Assembly (NCBI GenBank): GCA_963716565.1 | Contig: OY970318.1 | Span: 64,830 to 128,829, forward strand | Length of the DNA: 64,000 nucleotides | DNA from: an uncultured Candidatus Saccharibacteria bacterium | Lineage (GTDB): Bacteria > Patescibacteriota > Saccharimonadia > Saccharimonadales > CAIOMD01 | Direction: 5' to 3' | Part shown: positions 14,193-62,053 of the stretch, one piece after another | How positions within the stretch are numbered: position 1 is the first letter of the stretch | Layout of the letters: the number at the start of each line of letters is the position of its first letter | Program-made: the position numbers and the translations under genes | The notes under the pieces: generated by a model | Databases searched by the model: none | Told to the model about the DNA's origin: nothing | What the model saw: the letters and a program-made list of their open reading frames with translations, nothing else

Positions 14193-17748
<3,556 letters not shown>

Positions 17749-17757
17749 TCAATAACA

Positions 17758-17786
17758 TTGACAAAACTGAGCATTAGCGTTATGGT
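17758..17786 (+). promoter_or_regulatory. Sigma70-type promoter TTGACA-17-TATGGT driving structured RNA copy A
   Basis: Read directly. It is back to back with the divergent promoter of the RHH-Nudix gene. Confidence 0.55.
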
Positions 17787-17872
17787 AAGGTTACGAATCG
17801 CGCGGTATGCGCGGCTTTAAAACAAAAACTTTATAAAAACAAAAATGCTTTAAGGCCGCCGGGTGAGCCCGC

Positions 17873-18021
17873 GTGATTAGCTTTTGTGAGATAAATTGTG
17901 AAATTTATTTCATGATTTATCTACTTCAGATTGTGTGATTACCGCAGAATCTGAAGTAGGCTGGCTGAAAGCCGGCGCAAGGCAACAAACACCGTAGCTT
18001 TTGCTACGGGTTTGATTTTTG
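17873..18021 (+). ncRNA. Unclassified structured RNA, copy A (conserved core)
   Basis: In order: GTGATTAGCTTT motif, hairpin GATAAAT..ATTTATC, 12-bp hairpin CTACTTCAGATT/AATCTGAAGTAG, hairpin GCTGGC/GCCGGC, linker GCAAGGCAACAAAC, and terminator CCGTAGC-TTTT-GCTACGG plus GTTTGATTTTTG. The same architecture occurs at 38452-38589. Confidence 0.6.
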
Positions 18022-18101: not shown

Positions 18102-18488
18102 ATGGTGTTTAAGAGCGTTGTGCTGGAAGTGGGCGATTTTGTTGCCTTCACGGCAACGTCCGTGCCGCTTCCAGAAGTCCAGGCTGCTGTTGTCGATGTA
18201 GAGGATGGCGTACTCGAAGTTATGAGTACGCTTCTCAAACCTTTTCAGCACTCTGGCAAGTTCCGCGAAGACGAAGTGGGCGAGATTATGGTGGTCTACC
18301 CGGCCGCCATAGCTATTCCCCAGGAATCTGGTCGCGAGGACTTTGCCCCCCAACGGCGCGCTACATGTGTCTTCGAGGGGCGACAATATGAGGGCAGGAT
18401 CATGGCCGCTTTTAGTGGCTGGGTCTACATGCAGGCTGATGACGGGACTCCCCTCACGGGCAGTCCTAATCATTTCAATATCCTGTAG
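18102..18488 (+). CDS. Hypothetical protein (128 aa) in a GC-rich island
   Basis: Its own promoter and the RBS-like GGGGA precede the ATG. First codon positions are G-rich and the composition is V/E/G/A/D-rich, whereas the fully overlapping minus-strand ORF is H/R/S-rich. No motif recognised. Confidence 0.5.
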   Translation: MVFKSVVLEVGDFVAFTATSVPLPEVQAAVVDVEDGVLEVMSTLLKPFQHSGKFREDEVGEIMVVYPAAIAIPQESGREDFAPQRRATCVFEGRQYEGRIMAAFSGWVYMQADDGTPLTGSPNHFNIL

Positions 18489-19607: not shown

Positions 19608-20054
19608 ATGTCGGCAACGGGTGTGAGTCGTGGCGCAATGCTCGAACGAGCAATCGCTGAAGCCGTGGCTTTAGTGAAGAATATGGCCAGCGTGGTAGAA
19701 CGCTGGCAGAAGCAGCGCATATCTGTCGCTGTGCTGTCAGAGTTCGGACGGCCACATTACTTCACGCTCAATGGAGTGCAAGGGGAAGATAAGCGTCGTG
19801 AATTCGATGACTACGCACTTCTTAGCGCCAGGATCGCCTACTATAAGGGCCTTCATGGTCAAGAAGTGAGCCTAGAAAGGTTGCACAACCTCTTCGAGGC
19901 TTCTATCCATGACGACTGCTTCAGTGGCGTATCAAGCGTTGATGGCAGCGTGGCTATAGGCGTGTTTGGGCTACTAGGTCCGCTGGAGTCCAACTTCCTA
20001 GCCAAGATCATCCTGTGTGCTTATGAAACCGAGGTAAAACGCCACGATACATGA
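19608..20054 (+). CDS. GlcG/HbpS-like (DUF336) protein, tentative; GC-rich island
   Basis: Pattern match only. ISVAVLSEFGRPHYFTLNG is compared with the family's sIAVvDxgGhlxxxxRMDG, and DGSVAIGVFGLLGPLESNFLAKI with dGxxiGAiGVSGxxxxxDxxxA. RBS AAAGGGGA. Two downstream hairpins. Confidence 0.35.
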   Translation: MSATGVSRGAMLERAIAEAVALVKNMASVVERWQKQRISVAVLSEFGRPHYFTLNGVQGEDKRREFDDYALLSARIAYYKGLHGQEVSLERLHNLFEASIHDDCFSGVSSVDGSVAIGVFGLLGPLESNFLAKIILCAYETEVKRHDT

Positions 20055-29430: not shown

Positions 29431-30591
29431 ATGGATAGATATAGCCCCAAAGACATAGAAACCAAGTGGCAGCAGGCTTGGGCCAAAGATAATTTATATA
29501 AAGCTGTTGATTTTGATGAACGGCCAAAATTTGTGATGCTCACAGAATTCCCGTATTTATCCGGCTCGGGAATACATATGGGCCATATGCGCGAATATAC
29601 ACTGGGCGACATTATTGCCAGGCGTTATCGCATGGGCGGCCATAATGTTTTGTACCCAATGGGCTACGATACTTTTGGCTTGCCGACCGAAAACTATGCT
29701 ATTAAAAATAAGGTTGCTCCCCAAGCTGTAGCCAAACAAAATATTGCTAGCTTTCAAAAACAATTTGATGCTTTGGGTTTTAGTGTTGACTGGGAACGTT
29801 CTTTTTCGACCGCCGACCCAGACTATTACAAATGGACTCAGTGGTTATTTTTGAAGTTCTACGAAGCCGGGCTAGCTTATCAAGATGAAGTTGCTATTAA
29901 CTGGTGCTCTAAATGCAAAACCGGCTTGGCTAACGAAGAAGTTGTGGCTGGCAAGCACGAACGTTGTGACACGGTTGTAGAAAAGAAGCAACTTAAGCAG
30001 TGGGTTCTAAAAATTACCGATTATGCCGATAAATTAATTGATGGTTTAGCAACGGTTGATTATCCGTCTAATATTGCCGATCAGCAAATAAACTGGATTG
30101 GCCGCAGTGTTGGTGCCGAAATTGACTTTGAGGTTGCTGGCTCGGGCGAAAAAATTACTGTATTTACTACTAGGCCTGATACTTTGTTTGGCGCAACTTA
30201 TGTGGTTTTGGCGCCGGAGCATCCTTTGGTACCAAAAATTACTGCTGCCGAGAATAAGAAGACTGTAGATGAATATGTTTGCCAAAGTGTAGTCAAAACC
30301 GATATCGAGCGGCAGGCTGATGCTAAAGATAAGACTGGCGTATTCACTGGTGCTTACGCTATCAACCCAGCAACACAAGAAAAAATTCCAATTTGGATTG
30401 CTGACTATGTGTTAATGAATTATGGCACTGGCGCCATTATGGCTGTACCAGCTCACGATGAACGCGATTTTGCCTTTGCTAAAAAATTCGATTTGCCTAT
30501 TAAAGAAGTTATCTTGCCACATCGCATTGATAAAAATAATCCACCCCGAGAAACAAAGAACAGGCATTTCGTCGGGCAGTGCACGGCATAG
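29431..30591 (+). CDS. leuS: Leucyl-tRNA synthetase, N-terminal fragment (catalytic HIGH region and CP1 editing domain)
   Basis: HMGH (HIGH motif), GYDTFGLPTEN, TTRPDTLFGATY and AVPAHDERDFAFAKKFDLPIKEV. The frame ends at TAG 30589-30591, and the protein continues in another frame. Confidence 0.85.
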   Translation: MDRYSPKDIETKWQQAWAKDNLYKAVDFDERPKFVMLTEFPYLSGSGIHMGHMREYTLGDIIARRYRMGGHNVLYPMGYDTFGLPTENYAIKNKVAPQAVAKQNIASFQKQFDALGFSVDWERSFSTADPDYYKWTQWLFLKFYEAGLAYQDEVAINWCSKCKTGLANEEVVAGKHERCDTVVEKKQLKQWVLKITDYADKLIDGLATVDYPSNIADQQINWIGRSVGAEIDFEVAGSGEKITVFTTRPDTLFGATYVVLAPEHPLVPKITAAENKKTVDEYVCQSVVKTDIERQADAKDKTGVFTGAYAINPATQEKIPIWIADYVLMNYGTGAIMAVPAHDERDFAFAKKFDLPIKEVILPHRIDKNNPPRETKNRHFVGQCTA

Positions 30592-32318
30592 TTTATGATC
30601 CCAAAACCGACAAATATTTATGCGTTCAGTGGAAAAAACAACCTTGGACGGCGTTTGTAGTGGGTGGAATCGAAGATGGTGACAACGGGGATATTATTGC
30701 GGCTGCCTTGCGCGAAATTCGCGAAGAAACTGGTTATAAAAATATAAAACCTATAAGAGTTTTGGGTGGAAATATAGTTTCTGAATTTTATGCAGCGCAC
30801 AAAGACGTTAATCGCAAAGCGCTCTTTAGTGCCGTGCTATTTGAACTAATCGATGACGAACGAGATGAGATATCTAAAGAAGAACAAGAAACCCAAGAGG
30901 CCATATGGCTAAAGAGGGCAGAAATTACACCCGAACGTATGACCTGCTCCGAACTTGACCTATTTTGGGACAGGATAGATAACCCAGAAGCGATTTATAC
31001 CGGCGAAGGCATACTAGTAGGTTCCGGTGATTATGATGATTTGGAGTCTAATGAAGCGCGCGAAAAAATAGTGGCCGATTTAGCTAAAAAAGGTGTGGGC
31101 CGCGAGAAGGTTCAATATAAATTACGCGATTGGATTTTTAGCCGCCAACACTATTGGGGCGAACCCATCCCAATTATTCATTGCCAAAAATGTGGTATCG
31201 TGCCAGTGCCCGAAGATCAACTGCCTGTAACTTTACCCGAAGTAGAACATTACGAACCAACTGACACCGGCGAGAGCCCGCTAGCAGCGATTGATAGTTG
31301 GGTTAATACCACTTGCCCAAAATGTGGCGGCAAGGCCAAGCGCGAAACCGACACCATGCCAAACTGGGCTGGCAGTAGCTGGTATTATTTGCGCTATTAC
31401 GATGCCAAGAACGATAAAGAGTTTGCGGCTCAAGATAAACTAAAATACTGGGGTCAGGCCGACCTGTACTTGGGTGGCATGGAGCATACCACCTTGCATC
31501 TGCTGTATTCGCGTTTTTGGCATAAGTTCTTATACGACCAAAAACTAGTGCCCACCGAAGAACCTTATAAAGCTCGTCGTGGCCAGGGCATTATTTTGGC
31601 CGAAGACGGCAATAAAATGAGTAAGAGCAAGGGCAATGTAGTCGACCCAATTGGTATTATCAACCAGGGCTATGGCGCTGACGCTTTACGTTTAGCCATT
31701 GCCTTTATTGCGCCGTACGATCAAACAACCGCCTGGAAGCCTAACGTTGTACCTGGCACCTACCGTCTGTTGAACAGGGCCTGGACTTTAGTAAAAGAAT
31801 ATAAAGCCACCGTTAAACACGAAAGTTCCGAAAAAGACGGCGAACTATTAAGCGCTATACACGAATGCATTTATAAAGTTAGCAATGATTTAGAAAACTT
31901 AAACTTTAACACCGCCATATCAGCCTTAATGGAAGCAATAAACAAGCTTTACGTCATAAAAGAGCAAGATAAGTTTAGCTCCAAGGCCTGGGAATCCATT
32001 CTGCTTAATTTGGTCAAATTGTTGGCACCTTTTGCGCCGCATATTAGTGAAGAATTATGGCAGCAATTAGGCCAAACTGGTTCGGTGCATTTGGCCCAGT
32101 GGCCGGTGCACGACGAAGCTTATCTGGTAAAGCAGACCGTTAAAATTGCCATTCAGATTAATGGCAAGGTGCGTGGCGAAGTAGAAATGCCTTTTGATAG
32201 CGAGCAATCGGCGGTTGAAAAAGCGGCCAAGTTGCACGAAAACGCTGGCCAATATTTAAACGGCGATATCAAAAAAGTATTTTATGTTCCCAACAAGTTA
32301 ATTAGTTTTGTCGTCTAA
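30579..32318 (+). CDS. leuS: Leucyl-tRNA synthetase, C-terminal fragment beginning with an inserted Nudix-like domain
   Basis: The first 150 aa or so are Nudix-like (GGIEDGDNGDIIAAALREIREETGY). These are followed by canonical LeuRS segments (YKLRDWIFSRQHYWGEPIP, KMSKSKGN, and the anticodon-binding and C-terminal domains). This frame is open from 30540, after TAA 30537-30539. Confidence 0.85.
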   Translation: MHGIVYDPKTDKYLCVQWKKQPWTAFVVGGIEDGDNGDIIAAALREIREETGYKNIKPIRVLGGNIVSEFYAAHKDVNRKALFSAVLFELIDDERDEISKEEQETQEAIWLKRAEITPERMTCSELDLFWDRIDNPEAIYTGEGILVGSGDYDDLESNEAREKIVADLAKKGVGREKVQYKLRDWIFSRQHYWGEPIPIIHCQKCGIVPVPEDQLPVTLPEVEHYEPTDTGESPLAAIDSWVNTTCPKCGGKAKRETDTMPNWAGSSWYYLRYYDAKNDKEFAAQDKLKYWGQADLYLGGMEHTTLHLLYSRFWHKFLYDQKLVPTEEPYKARRGQGIILAEDGNKMSKSKGNVVDPIGIINQGYGADALRLAIAFIAPYDQTTAWKPNVVPGTYRLLNRAWTLVKEYKATVKHESSEKDGELLSAIHECIYKVSNDLENLNFNTAISALMEAINKLYVIKEQDKFSSKAWESILLNLVKLLAPFAPHISEELWQQLGQTGSVHLAQWPVHDEAYLVKQTVKIAIQINGKVRGEVEMPFDSEQSAVEKAAKLHENAGQYLNGDIKKVFYVPNKLISFVV

Positions 32319-36753: not shown

Positions 36754-36994
36754 TAAACGTAAGCCGTTTACGGCAACAAAAACAAAAAGTTATCTAAAAA
36801 GCTCGTGCGAGCCATTTGGCAAAATGCCGGTGGGAGCTTTATGTGGCAGAGAACACCTCTTTTTAAGGAGGTTTTTCTGTTTATAAGCATCATTTTCTAA
36901 AACTTTAAACCCAACATCTCATACCTACAAATATGAATAAAATACGCGATAGCGTAATTTATTCACATAACTGCCCATAAGGTATAATCAAGAT

Positions 36995-37636
36995 ATGTTA
37001 ATTCAAGTTATTACACTGTTCCCAGAGATGTTCGATAAGGTTTTTGGCAGTAGTATGCTGTGGAAGGCTCAAGATAAAGCTATCGTTAAGCTTGAAACTG
37101 TTAATTTGCGCGATTTTGGCCTAGGCCGGCGCAAAACTGTAGATGATACACCTTATGGCGGTGGCGATGGCATGCTATTAATGGCCGAGCCATTGTTTGC
37201 GGCCGTAGAGCATTGTAAAAAGATATCCCCTAAGGCAAAAGTTTTGCTCATGACGCCTAGGGGCAAAGATTACAACCAAAAAGACGCCCAAAGGCTGGCA
37301 AAAGCTACCCAAGATTTAATTATTATTTGTGGCCGCTATGAAGGTTACGATGAACGCATAACTTCGTTAGTCGACGAGCAAATTTGTATTGGTCCGTATG
37401 TACTAACCGGTGGCGAAATAGCCGCAATGGCCGTAGTAGATAGCGTGGTGCGTTTGTTGCCAGGTGTATTGGGTGGCGAAAATAGTGCCGAAATTGAATC
37501 TTTTAGCGACGGCTTTGAGCGGGAATTCCCGCAGTACACTCGCCCCGAAGAATTTATGGGCTTAAAAGTACCGGATGTTTTGCTAAGCGGCAACCACGCC
37601 GAAATCGCCAAATGGCGCGCCAATAATAGTAAATAA
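36995..37636 (+). CDS. trmD: tRNA (guanine37-N1)-methyltransferase
   Basis: ITLFPEMF, GRYEGYDERI and IGPYVLTGGEIAAMAVVDSVVRLLPGVLG. Confidence 0.93.
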   Translation: MLIQVITLFPEMFDKVFGSSMLWKAQDKAIVKLETVNLRDFGLGRRKTVDDTPYGGGDGMLLMAEPLFAAVEHCKKISPKAKVLLMTPRGKDYNQKDAQRLAKATQDLIIICGRYEGYDERITSLVDEQICIGPYVLTGGEIAAMAVVDSVVRLLPGVLGGENSAEIESFSDGFEREFPQYTRPEEFMGLKVPDVLLSGNHAEIAKWRANNSK

Positions 37637-37731: not shown

Positions 37732-38319
37732 CTACCTTGGATAGGGAAGGCCTTCGCCAGCCAGTATCTTGGCGCCGAGGAGGCCAGCCGCCCCGAGGCT
37801 CGTGGCGTGGTCTTCCATCTCCGTGAAGGTGCTGATTGCCACTCGTACGGTGAGGGGCCCCATCTGAAGGCGCACGGCGCCGCCATATGGGAAATCCCCA
37901 AACGGGAAGTCCTTCTTCAGGCCTTTGGTGTCGATGATGTCTTGCCATCCATCGAAACCCTGGAACCGCAAGGCAAGGGTGCTCTCCGCGCCTTCGCGCA
38001 ACAGCGCTCGCATCTTGCCTATGGTGTTGGCGATGTAGAGGTCGCGATCCGGACCCCAACCCCCAACGCACCATGCGAACTGCTCGGGGTTGTCCCACGA
38101 CTTGCTGGGTCCGTCATCGCGACGGTTGTTCCACTCAGGCCTGGCGATGGTGATCCCAAAGCTGTCCTTCTTCTTGACGTATCCAGCCCTCGCCAGCGCG
38201 TCCACCGCGGGCTTGAGGCCATCGATGAAGTCCTCCAGATGGATGATCTCGCCGGTGCCCTGGCACTCGTAGGTTCTCTCGTACTGCAGCTTGGAAAGGT
38301 CCAAGATCCGAGATGGCAT
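37732..38319 (-). CDS. Hypothetical protein (195 aa) in a GC-rich island; weak GlcG/DUF336-like C-terminal pattern
   Basis: ATG 38319 (MPSRILD) lies 7 nt after TAAGGAGAA and downstream of promoter TTGACA-17-TACTAT. The C-terminal YGGAVRLQMGPLTVRVAISTFTEMEDHATSLGAAG resembles the GGvP..dG..iGAiGVSG..xxD motif. A long GC hairpin follows the stop. The other frames here are shadow ORFs. Confidence 0.55.
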   Translation of the reverse strand: MPSRILDLSKLQYERTYECQGTGEIIHLEDFIDGLKPAVDALARAGYVKKKDSFGITIARPEWNNRRDDGPSKSWDNPEQFAWCVGGWGPDRDLYIANTIGKMRALLREGAESTLALRFQGFDGWQDIIDTKGLKKDFPFGDFPYGGAVRLQMGPLTVRVAISTFTEMEDHATSLGAAGLLGAKILAGEGLPYPR

Positions 38320-38407: not shown

Positions 38408-38451
38408 TACGTTCATCTCTGTTGTTGGCTTTTTCAAAAACCGCTAGTTTA

Positions 38452-38589
38452 GTGATTAGCTTTCGCGGAGCGCAAACCGCAGTTTGCGCTTCTAGAGAAC
38501 CTGCCGATGGTAGGTTCTCTAGAGTGCCAGCCAGAGGCTGGAGCGAGGCAACGAACCCCTTGGCTTTAGCTAGGGGTGTTTGATTTTTG
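38452..38589 (+). ncRNA. Unclassified structured RNA, copy B (conserved core)
   Basis: In order: GTGATTAGCTTT, hairpin GCGCAAAC-CGCA-GTTTGCGC, 12-bp hairpin TCTAGAGAACCT/AGGTTCTCTAGA, hairpin CCAGCC/GGCTGG, linker GCGAGGCAACGAAC, and hairpin CCCCT..AGGGG plus GTTTGATTTTTG. The element order matches copy A. Confidence 0.55.
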
Positions 38590-38662
38590 GAAAAGCCGGG
38601 AAGCCGGCGGGACTGGGCCTTGCGGCCACAATCCCAATGACTTCCCGGGTGGTGGTTTGCTA

Positions 38663-38929
38663 TTACTTGGCCTCGATGGACTCGAGAGAGTAGAGATTGC
38701 CCGGGTACTTGTCCCGTAGTCTCTCGTACTCAGTAATAGTCTCTTCGATCTCTTCCTGCTCTCGGAAGAGTCTGTCTGCTTCTGTCACCAGCTCTGCGAT
38801 CATCCGGTCGCAAAGCGACCAAGCCTTGCGGCCAGACCAAGTGGTCGGATCAGTTTTCAGCGCCAGCTTGTAGGCGCTGTCATCATAGCCGCAGAAGAAC
38901 AGAAAGTTGGCAATGATGAGCTTGAACAT
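38663..38929 (-). CDS. Hypothetical small protein (88 aa) in a GC-rich island
   Basis: ATG 38929 (MFKLIIANF) after an AGGCGG-type RBS, downstream of promoter TTGACT-17-TAATAT at 39012-39040. Terminator hairpin CCGGGAAG...CTTCCCGG plus a T-run lies at 38590-38655 (minus strand). The protein has a hydrophobic N-terminus and an acidic helical C-terminus. Confidence 0.5.
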   Translation of the reverse strand: MFKLIIANFLFFCGYDDSAYKLALKTDPTTWSGRKAWSLCDRMIAELVTEADRLFREQEEIEETITEYERLRDKYPGNLYSLESIEAK

Positions 38930-42901: not shown

Positions 42902-43012
42902 TATTGGCCTTTATATTAAATTATTCTTACGCTAATAATAGCAGATATTTAAAAACCTCTTGAGCTTGCAAAGGTCATGACTTAAAAAGCCGAGCGGCTG
43001 CAAAATTACACA

Positions 43013-43035
43013 TGGCTGGGGATGAGGGACTCGAC
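43013..43035 (-). repeat. 23-nt direct repeat copying the 3' end of tRNA-Gln (att-like scar)
   Basis: TGGCTGGGGATGAGGGACTCGA at 43013 matches 43198-43219, the T-arm/acceptor/CCA end of the intact tRNA-Gln. It diverges after that. Confidence 0.7.
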
Positions 43036-43197
43036 TCACCTTCGGCGAGCCCGTCGCAACATCTTTGCAAACAAGTTTGCAAGAGTTGACTCCCTTGCGA
43101 ACTGCCACTGGCATTTCTCACCCCGATTTGGTCGGGTGTTCGAGCCCCAACCATTAAACAAGGCCGGCAAACAGGCATAAAACCTATTTCCCGGCCT

Positions 43198-43271
43198 TGG
43201 CTGGGGATGAGGGACTCGAACCCCCGATCCTGGGACCAGAACCCAGTGCCTTACCACTTGGCCAATCCCCA
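43198..43271 (-). tRNA. tRNA-Gln (anticodon CTG), U1:A72, CCA encoded
   Basis: Reverse complement TGGGGATTGGCCAAGTGGTAAGGC...CTGGG-TTCTGGT-CCCAG...GGTTCGAGTCCCTCATCCCCAGCCA. Confidence 0.9.
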
Positions 43272-44495: not shown

Positions 44496-44642
44496 GTGCT
44501 TTAAGCGGAAGAGATTCTGCTTGGATGTTATTTGCTCTTTAACAAGTATCCAGGCCAGTTCAATGCCTTTTTAAATTAGAAGGTGTTGCCCTGGTCTGGA
44601 AAATGGATTCTAGACCTTAAACAGGGGAGGTGCGTCATAGTA

Positions 44643-44786
44643 GTGGCTGTTCAGAGTTGGGTTTGGCAAACGATCGTCATGTCAATGCGGGTCGTCGGTG
44701 CCATCCTAGCTTTAGGGATGGCTGTTGGCGTACTTGCCTATGGTTCCAGTATTTACTTGGAACTGAAGCGAAAGGGGGAGGTCTAA
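44643..44786 (+). CDS. Possible small membrane peptide upstream of the adhesin gene
   Basis: In the frame of track ORF 44583..44786. The start could be GTG 44643, 12 nt after GGGGAGG, or ATG 44679. The product carries a hydrophobic helix VVGAILALGMAVGVLAYG followed by KRKGEV. The start is uncertain. Confidence 0.3.
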   Translation: MAVQSWVWQTIVMSMRVVGAILALGMAVGVLAYGSSIYLELKRKGEV

Positions 44787-44848
44787 GGGAAAGCTGTCGT
44801 ATCAATCTACAACTGTTCTGGCAAACGAGTCACAGGGAGGACGCAGCT

Positions 44849-46705
44849 ATGACTGCGATAGTACGGGAGTACAAGAGGCATCCGCTACGGCTGTTTATGA
44901 TCATTGCGCTTGTTGCGCTTTTGATCACCGGCGTCATCGCCGGTTCGGTCTACGCGGCTACCAACGACGTCGTGGACGATCCGAATGCTACGACGAATTC
45001 GACTGTCAGTTCTGGTGAAGGCGGTTCTATCGAGGGGCAACCCACGGAGACCGAGACCACCGAGACCACAGAGACTACCGAAGCCAGCAACGTGCTGGCC
45101 GGCCAGAGTCTTGGTCTGACCCTGTCTGGTGGTGGAAGAGATGATCCGCCACCGCCACCGCAGGTCACGGGTGTATTAACCGTTACGGTGACATTCGTCA
45201 ATGCACCGACCGGCAAGGACAACCCGACCAGCTACACGGCTAGCGTGAAACAGAATGGCTCTCAGGCCTTCAATGCTAGCGGCAACGCGGTGTTCCCGAG
45301 CTTGGATCTTGGCAAAGACGGTAGCAAGGAGTTCGAGGTCACGGGCGTCTCGCCCGACAACGGCGCGACTGTGAGCTATCCGAACGGCAACAAGAAGACC
45401 CTGACCACCAGCAACCCAAACGGCACCATCGCGGTCACCATGACATGGCCGGCGCCAACAGATGGCGACCATGCCTGGAACAGAGAGAACGGCAAGGGCA
45501 ACAACTGTCCTTATGGTGGGCAGCTCTACTGGGTTCTTACGGCTGGCGGAGGCGGATTTAGCTTCGTGCCAGCTGAAACTACCCTAGAGGTAAAGTTCGC
45601 AGATGGAGCCACCAAAACCTTCAACGGTTTCTTTGAAGGCGGAGGTAGCAACGGAGCCATCAAGTTCATATCGGACTCGATGGACGCCGACGGCACCAAT
45701 CACGGCAAAGTGGTCGATGCTACTGCCCACTGGGGCGGTCTTGGAGAGCCAGGTCATATGGTTCTCACCATCAGCCACTCCATCAAGTGCTACACGGCGC
45801 CGCAACTGTACGACCTGCGAGTCCATAAGGACTTCGCAACCGGTTTTCCGCAGGCTTTGCAGGATCCCACGCGCTATCGCGTACGGGCAGTCTGCGCTGC
45901 GAACAGCTACGATGAATGGCGGACGTTCGACGCCAGCGGCAACGCGGTGTTCGAAGACCTCAAGCCAGGCCAGTACGCCCTGACAGAAGAAAGTCTGGAC
46001 GGGGTGCCGTTCACATACGCATTTACGCCGGCTAGTCCTGTCACCATTGGTTCGGCAGGTCTGACGGTCGCGTGTGTGGAGCCGGGCAACGATGTCGTCA
46101 ACGTGACGGTGGTTAACACCTACGTGCCACGGCTTGGACAGATCACTCTGTGCAAGAATCTGGCTGCAGGCGATTGGCCTGCGGGTGTGACAGCAGCCGA
46201 CTTCACGGCCGTCTACAAGTACGATGGTGTGATTCACAAGGTCCCCTTCGAGCTTGTTGACGAAGCCAACCCACTTCTTGGCCGAGCGATCCTACAGATC
46301 CCCGAGGAATACTTTGGGCTGTACGAATTCATCGGCGAAGAAGGGCCCAACGGAGTCGACTACAACGTGGTCATCAATCCCGGAAGCGTGACGGTGGACG
46401 CGCAGAACCTCACGCATGAGGTGACCTACACCAACACCTATAAGCCTCCGGTGACTACCACGGAACCGCCGGTCACAACGACCGAGCCTCCGGTGACTAC
46501 CACCACAGAGGCCCCGGCCACCACGACAACGCTTGGTCCCACAACGACCACTTTGCCTGGTGGAACCACTACCACGACCATCCACAAGGGAGATCGCGAC
46601 GAGTACCCGTTCACCGGGTTCCAGTTGTTGATCGGTCTTGGTGCGGCCGCGGCACTTGGTGGTGGCGGTGTAGCCCTGCGGCGTCTGACGAGCCGCAAGA
46701 AGTAG
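44849..46705 (+). CDS. Cell-wall-sorted surface protein with SpaA/prealbumin-like domains and a non-canonical YPFTG sorting signal
   Basis: ATG 44849 follows AGGGAGGA. Signal anchor LFMIIALVALLITGVIAGSVYA. SpaA-like unit TFDASGNAVFEDLKPGQYALTEE. A PPVTTTE x3 stalk. The C-terminus has EYPFTG, then the hydrophobic FQLLIGLGAAAALGGGGVAL, then RRLTSRKK. GC-rich. Confidence 0.75.
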   Translation: MTAIVREYKRHPLRLFMIIALVALLITGVIAGSVYAATNDVVDDPNATTNSTVSSGEGGSIEGQPTETETTETTETTEASNVLAGQSLGLTLSGGGRDDPPPPPQVTGVLTVTVTFVNAPTGKDNPTSYTASVKQNGSQAFNASGNAVFPSLDLGKDGSKEFEVTGVSPDNGATVSYPNGNKKTLTTSNPNGTIAVTMTWPAPTDGDHAWNRENGKGNNCPYGGQLYWVLTAGGGGFSFVPAETTLEVKFADGATKTFNGFFEGGGSNGAIKFISDSMDADGTNHGKVVDATAHWGGLGEPGHMVLTISHSIKCYTAPQLYDLRVHKDFATGFPQALQDPTRYRVRAVCAANSYDEWRTFDASGNAVFEDLKPGQYALTEESLDGVPFTYAFTPASPVTIGSAGLTVACVEPGNDVVNVTVVNTYVPRLGQITLCKNLAAGDWPAGVTAADFTAVYKYDGVIHKVPFELVDEANPLLGRAILQIPEEYFGLYEFIGEEGPNGVDYNVVINPGSVTVDAQNLTHEVTYTNTYKPPVTTTEPPVTTTEPPVTTTTEAPATTTTLGPTTTTLPGGTTTTTIHKGDRDEYPFTGFQLLIGLGAAAALGGGGVALRRLTSRKK

Positions 46706-61824: not shown

Positions 61825-62053
61825 ATTAGACGATAGATGATGGACTCTAGACGCTTGAGAGTGAGCTAATCAGGGAAGAAACCTAATAGTAATAGTGTAG
61901 TTAAATAAAATACGCTATAGCGTATTTTATTAAGATATTCACCGATATATTCATAGCTAATTGGTTAAGCTAATGTGCAGGCCCATCAATTTGGGGATAG
62001 GGCGCTTTCTGGGTTCAGGATCTTAAAAATATTGCGTTCGTATGTAACACGTA

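Follow-up and report, generated by a model that had tools for sequence, protein, structure and literature searches.

Two short, strongly folded segments lie on the same strand of a 64-kb stretch (hereafter the window) of a 799-kb Saccharibacteria contig, and a first-pass annotation took them for two copies of a self-contained functional RNA gene. Are they such genes, or are they mobile DNA? We refer to the window copies as A and B, and compared them with three copies from other genomes, C (L001), D (L006/L048) and E (L017). The five copies make up an uncatalogued, gene-less element family of Saccharibacteria with a unit length of 132-148 bp. Genomes that are otherwise collinear have or lack the entire unit at a TGAT site, and such presence or absence of a whole block is the behavior of a mobile insertion. 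We consider selfish mobile DNA more likely than a regulatory RNA gene. At a probability of roughly 55%, we favor a non-autonomous mobile element in the manner of the gene-less IS200/IS605 derivatives (PATEs) and of REP elements.

Two divergent copies and their relatives

Three motifs delineate the window copies. GTGATTAGCTTT matches the window exactly only at 17873 and 38452, GCRAGGCAACRAAC only at 17977 and 38543, and GTTTGATTTTTG only at 18010 and 38578. The motifs have the same order on the + strand in A and B and the stems between them are unrelated in sequence, so the first-pass description of two divergent but collinear copies is borne out. The extent given for copy A (17758-18021) was too generous, because only 17874-18016 is conserved. 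Similarity among the five copies starts and stops at these edges, which agree with the edges of the insertion seen when L017 is compared with L023 (see below). Compared with shuffled sequence, RNA folding gives z = -8.4 for A and -6.5 for B, and DNA parameters give about the same values.

Neither copy belongs to a catalogued RNA family, as had been proposed. Searching the whole window against Rfam 15 at gathering thresholds returned ten tRNAs and nothing over A or B. At permissive E-values (E <= 5-10) there was no credible family over either copy, and the top sub-threshold match over a window copy, BSnc120, reached 23 bits where 114 are needed. The copies in L001, L006 and L017 have no Rfam match.

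Pattern searches found three more members, bringing the total to five distinct copies from four genomes. Copy C came from one pattern scan of metagenome contigs. A pattern scan of ~185,000 species-representative genomes gave 16 matches, which is about the chance expectation. Two of them are true members (D, in a Patescibacteria assembly, and E, in a Candidatus Saccharibacteria assembly); the other 14 are chance matches, and the four in Planctomycetota represent a single conserved coding region. A copy identical to D is present in four other assemblies or samples (L048-L052). Three pattern scans of viral contigs yielded 0, 0 and 22 matches; all 22 lacked the 5' motif and a comparable 3' stem. 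No match was found by blastn in phage and plasmid collections. We built a covariance model (R1) on all five copies and searched ~320 kb of Saccharibacteria loci with it. The five members scored 99-151 bits and everything else <=20 bits.

A conserved fold with variable hairpins

The minimum-energy folds of all five trimmed units share a common plan, consisting of a 5' UGAUUA, a closing stem (P1), three hairpins (H1-H2-H3), an AAC linker, a 3' hairpin and a terminal GAU. P1 is a 7-bp stem with a bulged U, GCUU-(U)-CGC with GCG-AGGC. It closes H1, H2 and H3 into a four-way junction, and the base of the 3' hairpin is AAAC/GUUU. At the DNA level, the unit is laid out as TGAT / TA - P1(5') - H1 - H2 - H3 - P1(3') - AACA - 3' hairpin - GTT TGAT /. 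The conserved motifs, previously described as single-stranded, are mostly paired: GCUUU.. with ..AGGC makes P1, and AAAC with GUUU makes the base of the 3' hairpin.

P1, H3 and the 3' hairpin can be aligned with the model, and 92.9% of the cells in these stems pair, versus 30-46% when the partners are slid by 1-3 columns. Six pairs in these stems are changed on both sides, and none of 500 shuffles reached the observed values. Based on five sequences, the pairing and covariation statistics are supportive of a conserved fold, short of conclusive. The claim of a conserved architecture that does not stem from a recent duplication is upheld by five members with one fold and this level of pairing. 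The inner P1 pairs are UA, GC and UG in A versus CG, GC and CG in the other copies, and in the minimum-energy fold of A the first hairpin takes over the inner part of P1. A U.G pair in P1 is invariant across copies. The + strand folds more stably in four of the five copies, and it holds 6, 5, 1, 3 and 3 G.U pairs versus 0, 0, 2, 1 and 0 for the other strand.

H1 and H2 cannot be aligned between copies, yet each is a near-perfect hairpin in every copy (H2 has 12-15 bp and measures 31-39 nt overall). The 3' hairpin is present in every copy with a variable stem sequence, and only its base and P1 with the bulged U are conserved. The internal hairpins are constant in position and length and differ in sequence. 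As for the individual hairpins listed in the first-pass annotation, the third one (6-7 bp) and the 3' stem-loops were correctly recognized, whereas the 12-bp perfect hairpin holds for A only, its counterpart in B having 15 bp with one wobble pair.

Copies C and D are nearly identical in P1, H1 and H3 and completely different in H2 and in the 3' hairpin. Judging from the sequences, this looks like module replacement rather than drift. The hairpins of E resemble those of no other copy. E was gained after the split from the L023 lineage, whose flanks are nearly identical. Because E is recent and yet has hairpins unlike the others, the hairpin diversity is either older than the insertion or made during mobilization. 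Perfect stems with unrelated sequences imply either selection for pairing or a palindrome-making process. It had been speculated that the variable hairpin is a specificity module. The arms of the variable hairpins, among them the H2 arms of A (CUACUUCAGAUU/AAUCUGAAGUAG), have no other match in the window and the flanks have only chance-level 8-9-mers, which does not favor that idea. The 9-mer ATTAGCTTT, reported from the leader of a third island, is present at ~19548, but there is no covariance-model match there and we regard it as a chance 9-mer.

Gain and loss of the unit at TGAT

Copy E lies in a locus with the gene order dnaB - membrane protein (412-aa) - element - ybaB - recR. Relatives found through RecR keep this order and have an empty spacer of 32-33 nt. 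The empty site reads ...CCGGCTT-TGAT-ATAATTTAAGC... in L023/L024 (RecR 85% identical) and ...AAGACT-TGAT-ATAATAGG... in L025 (RecR 82%). The filled site in L017 reads ...CCGGCTC-TGAT-TAGCTTTCGC...CCAAGGGTT-TGAT-ATAATTTATGG..., and the extra block is exactly the unit conserved in the five copies, with TGAT on both sides. Ten more loci (79%-identical relative) are also empty and L021 (89% identity) is without the element. The single TGAT of the empty allele supplies the stop codon and also opens TGATATAAT, which serves ybaB as an extended -10 box. Insertion leaves both of these signals intact. Here and below, promoter matches are matches to consensus hexamers in the sequence and are thus predictions.

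The other loci agree with these boundaries. At the D locus, the spacer between two convergent genes is 199 nt, versus 52 nt in L053, and the flanks TTGCTGA... and ...GTTGGGAAT(T/A)AAAAA are recognizable; the TGAT repeat is lengthened to TGATTAG. Copy B lies in the loop of an older inverted repeat that its flanks form. Copy A is in a variable region and is not syntenic: three ligA-linked loci of relatives (LigA 83%, 78% and 70% identity) have different genes and no copy. Among the five copies, the flanks outside both TGATs are unrelated and similarity stops exactly at the TGATs, and all five have (N)TGAT followed by TAGC. Terminal inverted repeats are absent: in no copy is the 5' end (TGATTAGCTTT) related to the reverse-complemented 3' end (ATCAAACNCC). 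The TGAT at both junctions has three possible readings, namely a target plus an identical cleavage motif at the right end, a 4-bp duplication, or a recombination core.

Two further insert-like structures were observed near these loci. The spacer between the membrane protein and ybaB in L021 (L021:4000-4170) has an unrelated GC-rich insert of ~130 nt with a long hairpin, located in the 5' untranslated region of ybaB, and this spacer seems to be a hotspot for structured insertions. Adjoining copy C, L001:317-477 has 24-bp perfect terminal inverted repeats (TTTAGGACTTTCGCACTTTTGTG / CACGCAAAAGTGCGAAAGTCCTAAA) around ~110 nt, an RNA fold with z = -8.8 and no Rfam match. It resembles a classical inverted-end miniature transposon.

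Transcription signals around the copies

The first-pass annotation also assigned copy A a TTGACA-17-TATGGT promoter of its own. The consensus match is real, but it lies in flanking DNA 87 nt outside the unit and has no counterpart upstream of any other copy. The unit opens at its first structured nucleotide and contains no promoter; because it begins at the structured part, there is no room for an internal one. Copy B has no + strand promoter match. It is antisense between two minus-strand genes, the left of which has its own AAGGAG ribosome-binding site and a TTGACA-17-TACTAT match, and it faces a convergent gene. Copies D and E begin within the stop codon of the upstream gene, in sense orientation. 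In L001, a CATAAT -10-like hexamer occurs just before the unit.

The 3' hairpins of A, B and L001 precede a T run and fit the pattern of an intrinsic terminator; in A, hairpin and flanking T run do so on both strands. The T run is poor in L006 and L017, and in L006 the element is followed by the terminator hairpin of the gene itself. No protein family recurs beside the copies. We rejected the possibility that A is a riboswitch or attenuator leader of the downstream open reading frame (ORF) 18102-18488, which the first-pass annotation had named as an outcome that would undo its reading. The ORF has its own TTTACA-17-TATAAT match between A and the ORF, and the downstream genes differ in every copy. 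Taken together, the earlier reading is partly supported. The fold is conserved, with compensatory changes, and is uncatalogued, while a self-contained RNA gene is not supported given the missing internal promoter, the starts within stop codons (L006 and L017), the lack of a promoter match for B and the presence or absence of the unit as a block.

A candidate mechanism and the evidence against it

Several properties of IS200/IS605 elements are relevant here. Insertion of ISDra2 takes place 3' of TTGAT and depends on subterminal hairpins in the single-stranded DNA (PMC2806898). Across the family, a short subterminal DNA segment acts as a 'guide' by pairing imperfectly with the target and cleavage motifs, and derivatives without genes, the PATEs, are moved in trans (PMC10055086).

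By analogy, the + strand of the unit would fold such that P1 and the 3' hairpin bring both TGAT junctions beside the conserved AACA. AACA could pair imperfectly with TGAT (T-A, G-C, A.A, T-A). At the right end this pairing would lengthen the 3' hairpin, and at the left flank it would stack on P1 across a two-base TA bulge. A recombinase or transposase encoded elsewhere in the genome would recognize the folded junction and cut after TGAT at both ends (slashes in the layout above), in a process resembling the 'peel-and-paste' single-strand transposition of IS200/IS605. Since the unit opens with TGA/TAG stops and, at its far end, restores TGAT and the original flank, it could land on a stop codon or on a TGnTATAAT promoter and break neither. 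When read through, the 3' hairpin would add a terminator-like or 3'-untranslated structure, and any RNA from the element would be a by-product or have a secondary cis effect, rather than being the product of a dedicated RNA gene. The element may thus work like an IS200/IS605 or REP-type element, an analogy that does not class it as a member of either.

The orientation of the window copies can be compared with that of IS608, for which the G-rich strand is the lagging-strand template and the preferred substrate. In both window copies the folding strand is the G-rich strand (the cumulative GC skew rises throughout the window), which is weak evidence with n = 2; the C, D and E loci are too short for GC skew to inform orientation.

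Several observations weigh against a mobile element of this kind. Folding energies do not discriminate between RNA and single-stranded DNA. None of the 30 window ORFs scanned for protein families (Pfam, NCBIfam and PHROG) was found to encode a transposase, Y1/HUH enzyme, TnpB, IscB, integrase, reverse transcriptase or Cas protein; this agrees with the first-pass annotation, which had listed reverse transcriptase, Cas and TnpB as missing, and like all window negatives it covers this 64 kb. In IS200/IS605 the end hairpins are kept in sequence because the transposase binds them; in the present copies, conservation is confined to P1 and the base of the 3' hairpin. The right end bears the same TGAT as the target, unlike in IS608, and this could be a 4-bp target duplication or a recombination core. 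Copies A and B, from one genome, are far more divergent than is usual for copies of an active miniature transposon. Near-perfect stems of unrelated sequence imply that pairing is under selection, for which a purely selfish element has no obvious need. Finally, the element is rare, with five distinct copies in the ~320 kb of Saccharibacteria DNA that were searched with R1.

Alternative explanations

The best of the alternatives, which we nevertheless consider unlikely, is a cis-acting RNA module that is also mobile. Its co-transcribed hairpins and 3' stem-loop would end or stabilize the upstream mRNA and would be kept for that reason, the conserved fold being an RNA fold. REP/BIME elements do end or stabilize upstream mRNAs in enterobacteria. 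The sense copies placed directly after a stop codon in L006 and L017 fit this explanation, as do the terminator-like 3' hairpin and T run of A, B and L001, the concentration of G.U pairs on the + strand, one-sided G.U/A-U changes in the 3' hairpin, and the perfect pairing of stems unrelated in sequence, which points to selection on structure. However, B is antisense to both of its neighbors and has no sense promoter match, the T run is poor in L006 and L017, and the module would be redundant in L006, where the gene's own terminator hairpin follows. Moreover, a terminator or stabilizer needs neither a four-way junction nor conserved ends.

Somewhat less probable still is a family of stand-alone, trans-acting non-coding RNAs descending from old paralogs, in which function would reside in the conserved, single-stranded 5' UGAUUA and AACAAAC linker, with the stems unconstrained in sequence. 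Conserved architecture with compensatory changes, the lack of any matching known family, the promoter-like site and terminator of A and the -10-like hexamer before the L001 unit are what one would expect of such RNAs. On the other hand, there is no conserved promoter and the unit starts at its structured part; two copies open inside a stop codon and B is without a sense promoter match. The insertion is absent from close relatives, no protein partner recurs, and the window showed no sequence complementary to the conserved motifs. The distribution is also sporadic, with true members in only two of the ~185,000 species-representative genomes. Paralogous bacterial small RNAs resemble the element in their conserved motifs, diverged stems and 3' terminator, and differ from it with regard to the conserved promoter, the block insertion at TGAT, the stop-codon starts and the lack of synteny.

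Known RNAs and cassettes were considered as identities and rejected. SRP RNA was rejected on anatomy, although E sits just upstream of ybaB-recR, and so were 6S RNA, a tRNA-like cloverleaf, retron RNA and bridge RNA. A ribozyme was rejected because the stems are perfect and the junctions are not conserved. For an integron attC site or cassette, AACAAAC matches at 5/7 and GTTTGAT at 6/7 positions of RYYYAAC...GTTRRRY; the element has a four-way junction plus a hairpin, it is solitary and no integrase was found among the window ORFs scanned.

A long shot within mobile DNA is a new class of element recognized by its fold and not by its sequence. The fixed part would be the TGAT ends, P1 with its bulged U, and AACA, and H2 would be swapped wholesale between lineages, either serving as a module of identity or immunity specific to each lineage or arising as a side product of a hairpin-generating step in mobilization. 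This possibility draws on copies C and D, which share P1, H1 and H3 but not H2, and on the hairpins of the recent copy E, which are unlike the others.

An orphan guide-RNA element is very improbable. Such an element would be a PATE whose right end encodes an omega-RNA scaffold for a TnpB or IscB encoded elsewhere, with the flank as the guide. There is precedent, in that PATEs 'often encode omega RNAs' that are used by TnpB encoded elsewhere (PMC10055086), the left flank (N)TGAT resembles the TTGAT beside ISDra2 targets (PMC8612924), and the structured scaffold ends exactly at the element boundary. Against it, the right end is itself TTGAT, and a nuclease using TTGAT would cut the occupied site too. 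The 3' hairpin and T run of A, B and L001 would stop transcription before the guide. The unit has no promoter inside it, the window ORFs scanned gave no TnpB or IscB, and Rfam gave no omega-RNA-type match. Chance resemblance, or a decaying and unconstrained segmental duplication, would suit the small copy number but is refuted by the three exact 12-14-nt collinear motifs in A and B, found again in three other genomes, and by the single fold of all five members, whose covariance-model scores stand far above all else.

Comparison with known small mobile elements

Returning to the non-autonomous mobile element that we favor, its closest parallels are with IS200/IS605 and the PATEs (ISDra2, IS608). 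Like these, it has no terminal inverted repeats, has hairpins near its ends and has a strand-specific fold. It inserts just 3' of a short motif, (N)TGAT here and TTGAT for ISDra2; AACA could pair imperfectly with the cleavage motif as the DNA 'guide' does in IS608; and, as for PATEs, the gene-less copies need movement in trans. It differs in that the hairpin sequences vary, P1 joins the ends into one four-way junction where those elements form a separate hairpin at each end, the target motif recurs at the right end, and no Y1 transposase was found in the window ORFs scanned.

REP/BIME units are short extragenic palindromic sequences, often located after stop codons, with a mosaic or modular make-up and stable 3' structures in mRNA. 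They are thought to be moved by a single-copy, IS200/IS605-related enzyme (RAYT) encoded elsewhere. In contrast to the element described here, REP units retain their sequence within a genome, are present hundreds of times, have a GTAG-type 5' tetranucleotide, and have neither a four-way junction nor TGAT bounds. Rickettsia palindromic elements (RPEs) measure 100-150 bp, occur in a reduced genome, and have strong hairpins, diverged copies and no inverted-repeat ends. The element resembles them in size, in its reduced host genome, in its strong predicted hairpins, in the high divergence of its copies and in lacking inverted-repeat ends and a known mobilizing enzyme. RPEs, however, often insert in frame inside genes and keep similarity throughout, and they are not known to have a fixed target motif. 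The co-transcribed miniature transposons Correia, ERIC, BOX and RUP end in inverted repeats, are flanked by target duplications that DDE transposases produce, and have copies alike in sequence. They too are small intergenic insertions with stable RNA folds that can add terminators or processing sites, and BOX is modular, but the element lacks their inverted ends and similar interiors.

Features of the copies and their surroundings

The coordinates of the copies, their structural parts and the flanking features are given in Table 1. The window also encodes LigA (15106-17103), whose nearest named homologs are from 'Candidatus Saccharibacteria', as well as KhpA (by Pfam) and ribosomal proteins.

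Table 1. Positions of the five copies, of the parts of A and B, and of associated features (window coordinates unless a locus is named).
Feature	Position	Strand	Description and basis
Copy A, whole conserved/inserted unit	17874..18016	+	TGAT bounds 17874-17877 and 18013-18016; R1 138 bits, E = 1.6e-34
A, P1 5' strand	17880..17888	+	GCUUU-U-GUG, partner 17976-17983; minimum-energy fold of trimmed unit and pair counts
A, H1	17884..17915	+	AT-rich, ~14 bp, sequence unique to A; fold
A, H2	17921..17959	+	12 perfect bp plus 4-bp apical stem; fold
A, H3	17960..17976	+	GCUGGCU-GAA-AGCCGGC; fold, pair counts
A, conserved GCAAGGCAACAAAC	17977..17990	+	P1 3' strand (..AAGGC), AACA linker, AAC opening the 3' hairpin
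A, 3' hairpin	17986..18014	+	CAAAC-A-CCGUAGC UUUU GCUACGG-GUUUG; fold, terminator match
Promoter match TTGACA-17-TATGGT	17758..17786	+	flanking DNA 5' of A
Copy B, whole unit	38453..38584	+	TGAT bounds 38453-38456 and 38581-38584; R1 124.6 bits, E = 6.6e-31; alignment
B, P1 5' strand	38459..38466	+	GCUU-U-CGC, partner 38543-38549 (GCG-AGGC); fold, pair counts
B, H1	38469..38490	+	AGCGCAAAC-CGCA-GUUUGCGCU; fold
B, H2	38491..38523	+	15 bp, one G.U pair; fold, inverted-repeat search (15 nt, 93% complementary)
B, H3	38527..38541	+	CCAGCC-AGA-GGCUGG; fold, pair counts
B, 3' hairpin	38552..38582	+	AAC/GUU base, terminator-like; fold, terminator match
Left arm of 14-nt inverted repeat bracketing B	38427..38440	.	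93% complementary, arms 143 nt apart
Right arm of 14-nt inverted repeat bracketing B	38584..38597	.	same inverted-repeat search
Copy C	L001:16-163		one pattern scan of metagenome contigs
Copy D	L006:3987-4131	-	species-representative genome scan; Patescibacteria assembly
Copy E	L017:4285-4417	-	species-representative genome scan; Candidatus Saccharibacteria assembly

Both window copies had been placed in GC-rich islands next to small orphan ORFs. The GC content is 0.51-0.54 around B (37-39 kb) and 0.46 around A, so that the statement applies well to B and weakly to A. Orphan ORFs do adjoin A and B, but such GC-rich ORFs are absent beside C, D and E. In the window, which belongs to a genome of 43% GC, GC-rich ORFs occur at 18102-18488, 19608-20054, 37732-38319(-), 38663-38929(-) and 44630-46705, one of them encoding 691 aa. 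None has a Pfam, NCBIfam or PHROG match, and they may be foreign DNA.

Just 5' of A, at 17790-17872, GC-rich stems GCGGCTTTAAA.../...CTTTAAGGCCGC enclose an A-rich loop. These stems, situated between the promoter-like site and A, may be another inserted hairpin element. The ORF divergent from A, 17092-17748(-), has a weak N-terminal match to a CopG-type ribbon-helix-helix domain, just below the Pfam threshold, and further on a weak MutT/Nudix-like match, far below the NCBIfam cut-off; if real, the domain pairing would be unusual. Its promoter-like TTGACA-17-AATAAT lies back to back with the site 5' of A.

Elsewhere in the window, an AT-rich palindrome, AATAAAATACGC(G/T)ATAGCGTA(A/T)TTTATT, occurs at 36936-36969 and 61904-61937 (88% identical). 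One copy is just upstream of ORF 36995-37636, which we take to be TrmD on the basis of its translation alone, and the palindrome may act as an operator or as a terminator in both directions. Part of the 3' half of tRNA-Gln is duplicated (43012-43046 and 43198-43271) 185 bp from the intact gene, at the edge of a GC-rich stretch at 43-47 kb (GC 0.55-0.59). Such an arrangement is typical of islands that have integrated at tRNA genes. Leucyl-tRNA synthetase appears as two overlapping ORFs, 29431-30591 (N-terminal, with the editing domain by Pfam) and 30579-32318, and in L018:18951-21437 it is also split into two genes, at a different point.

Implications

The genomes of Saccharibacteria and of other bacteria of the candidate phyla radiation are tiny, and their mobile DNA and non-coding RNA are poorly known. 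The element inserts on stop codons and promoter -10 boxes without damage and would add terminator-like hairpins to neighboring transcripts. Annotation pipelines and RNA-discovery screens are prone to mistake it for a covarying structured RNA. Conservation of structure alone, together with the apparent swapping of hairpins, is unusual. If the folded junction is indeed the substrate of a single-strand transposase, such enzymes would be able to work on ends that are joined in a four-way junction whose arms are free to vary.

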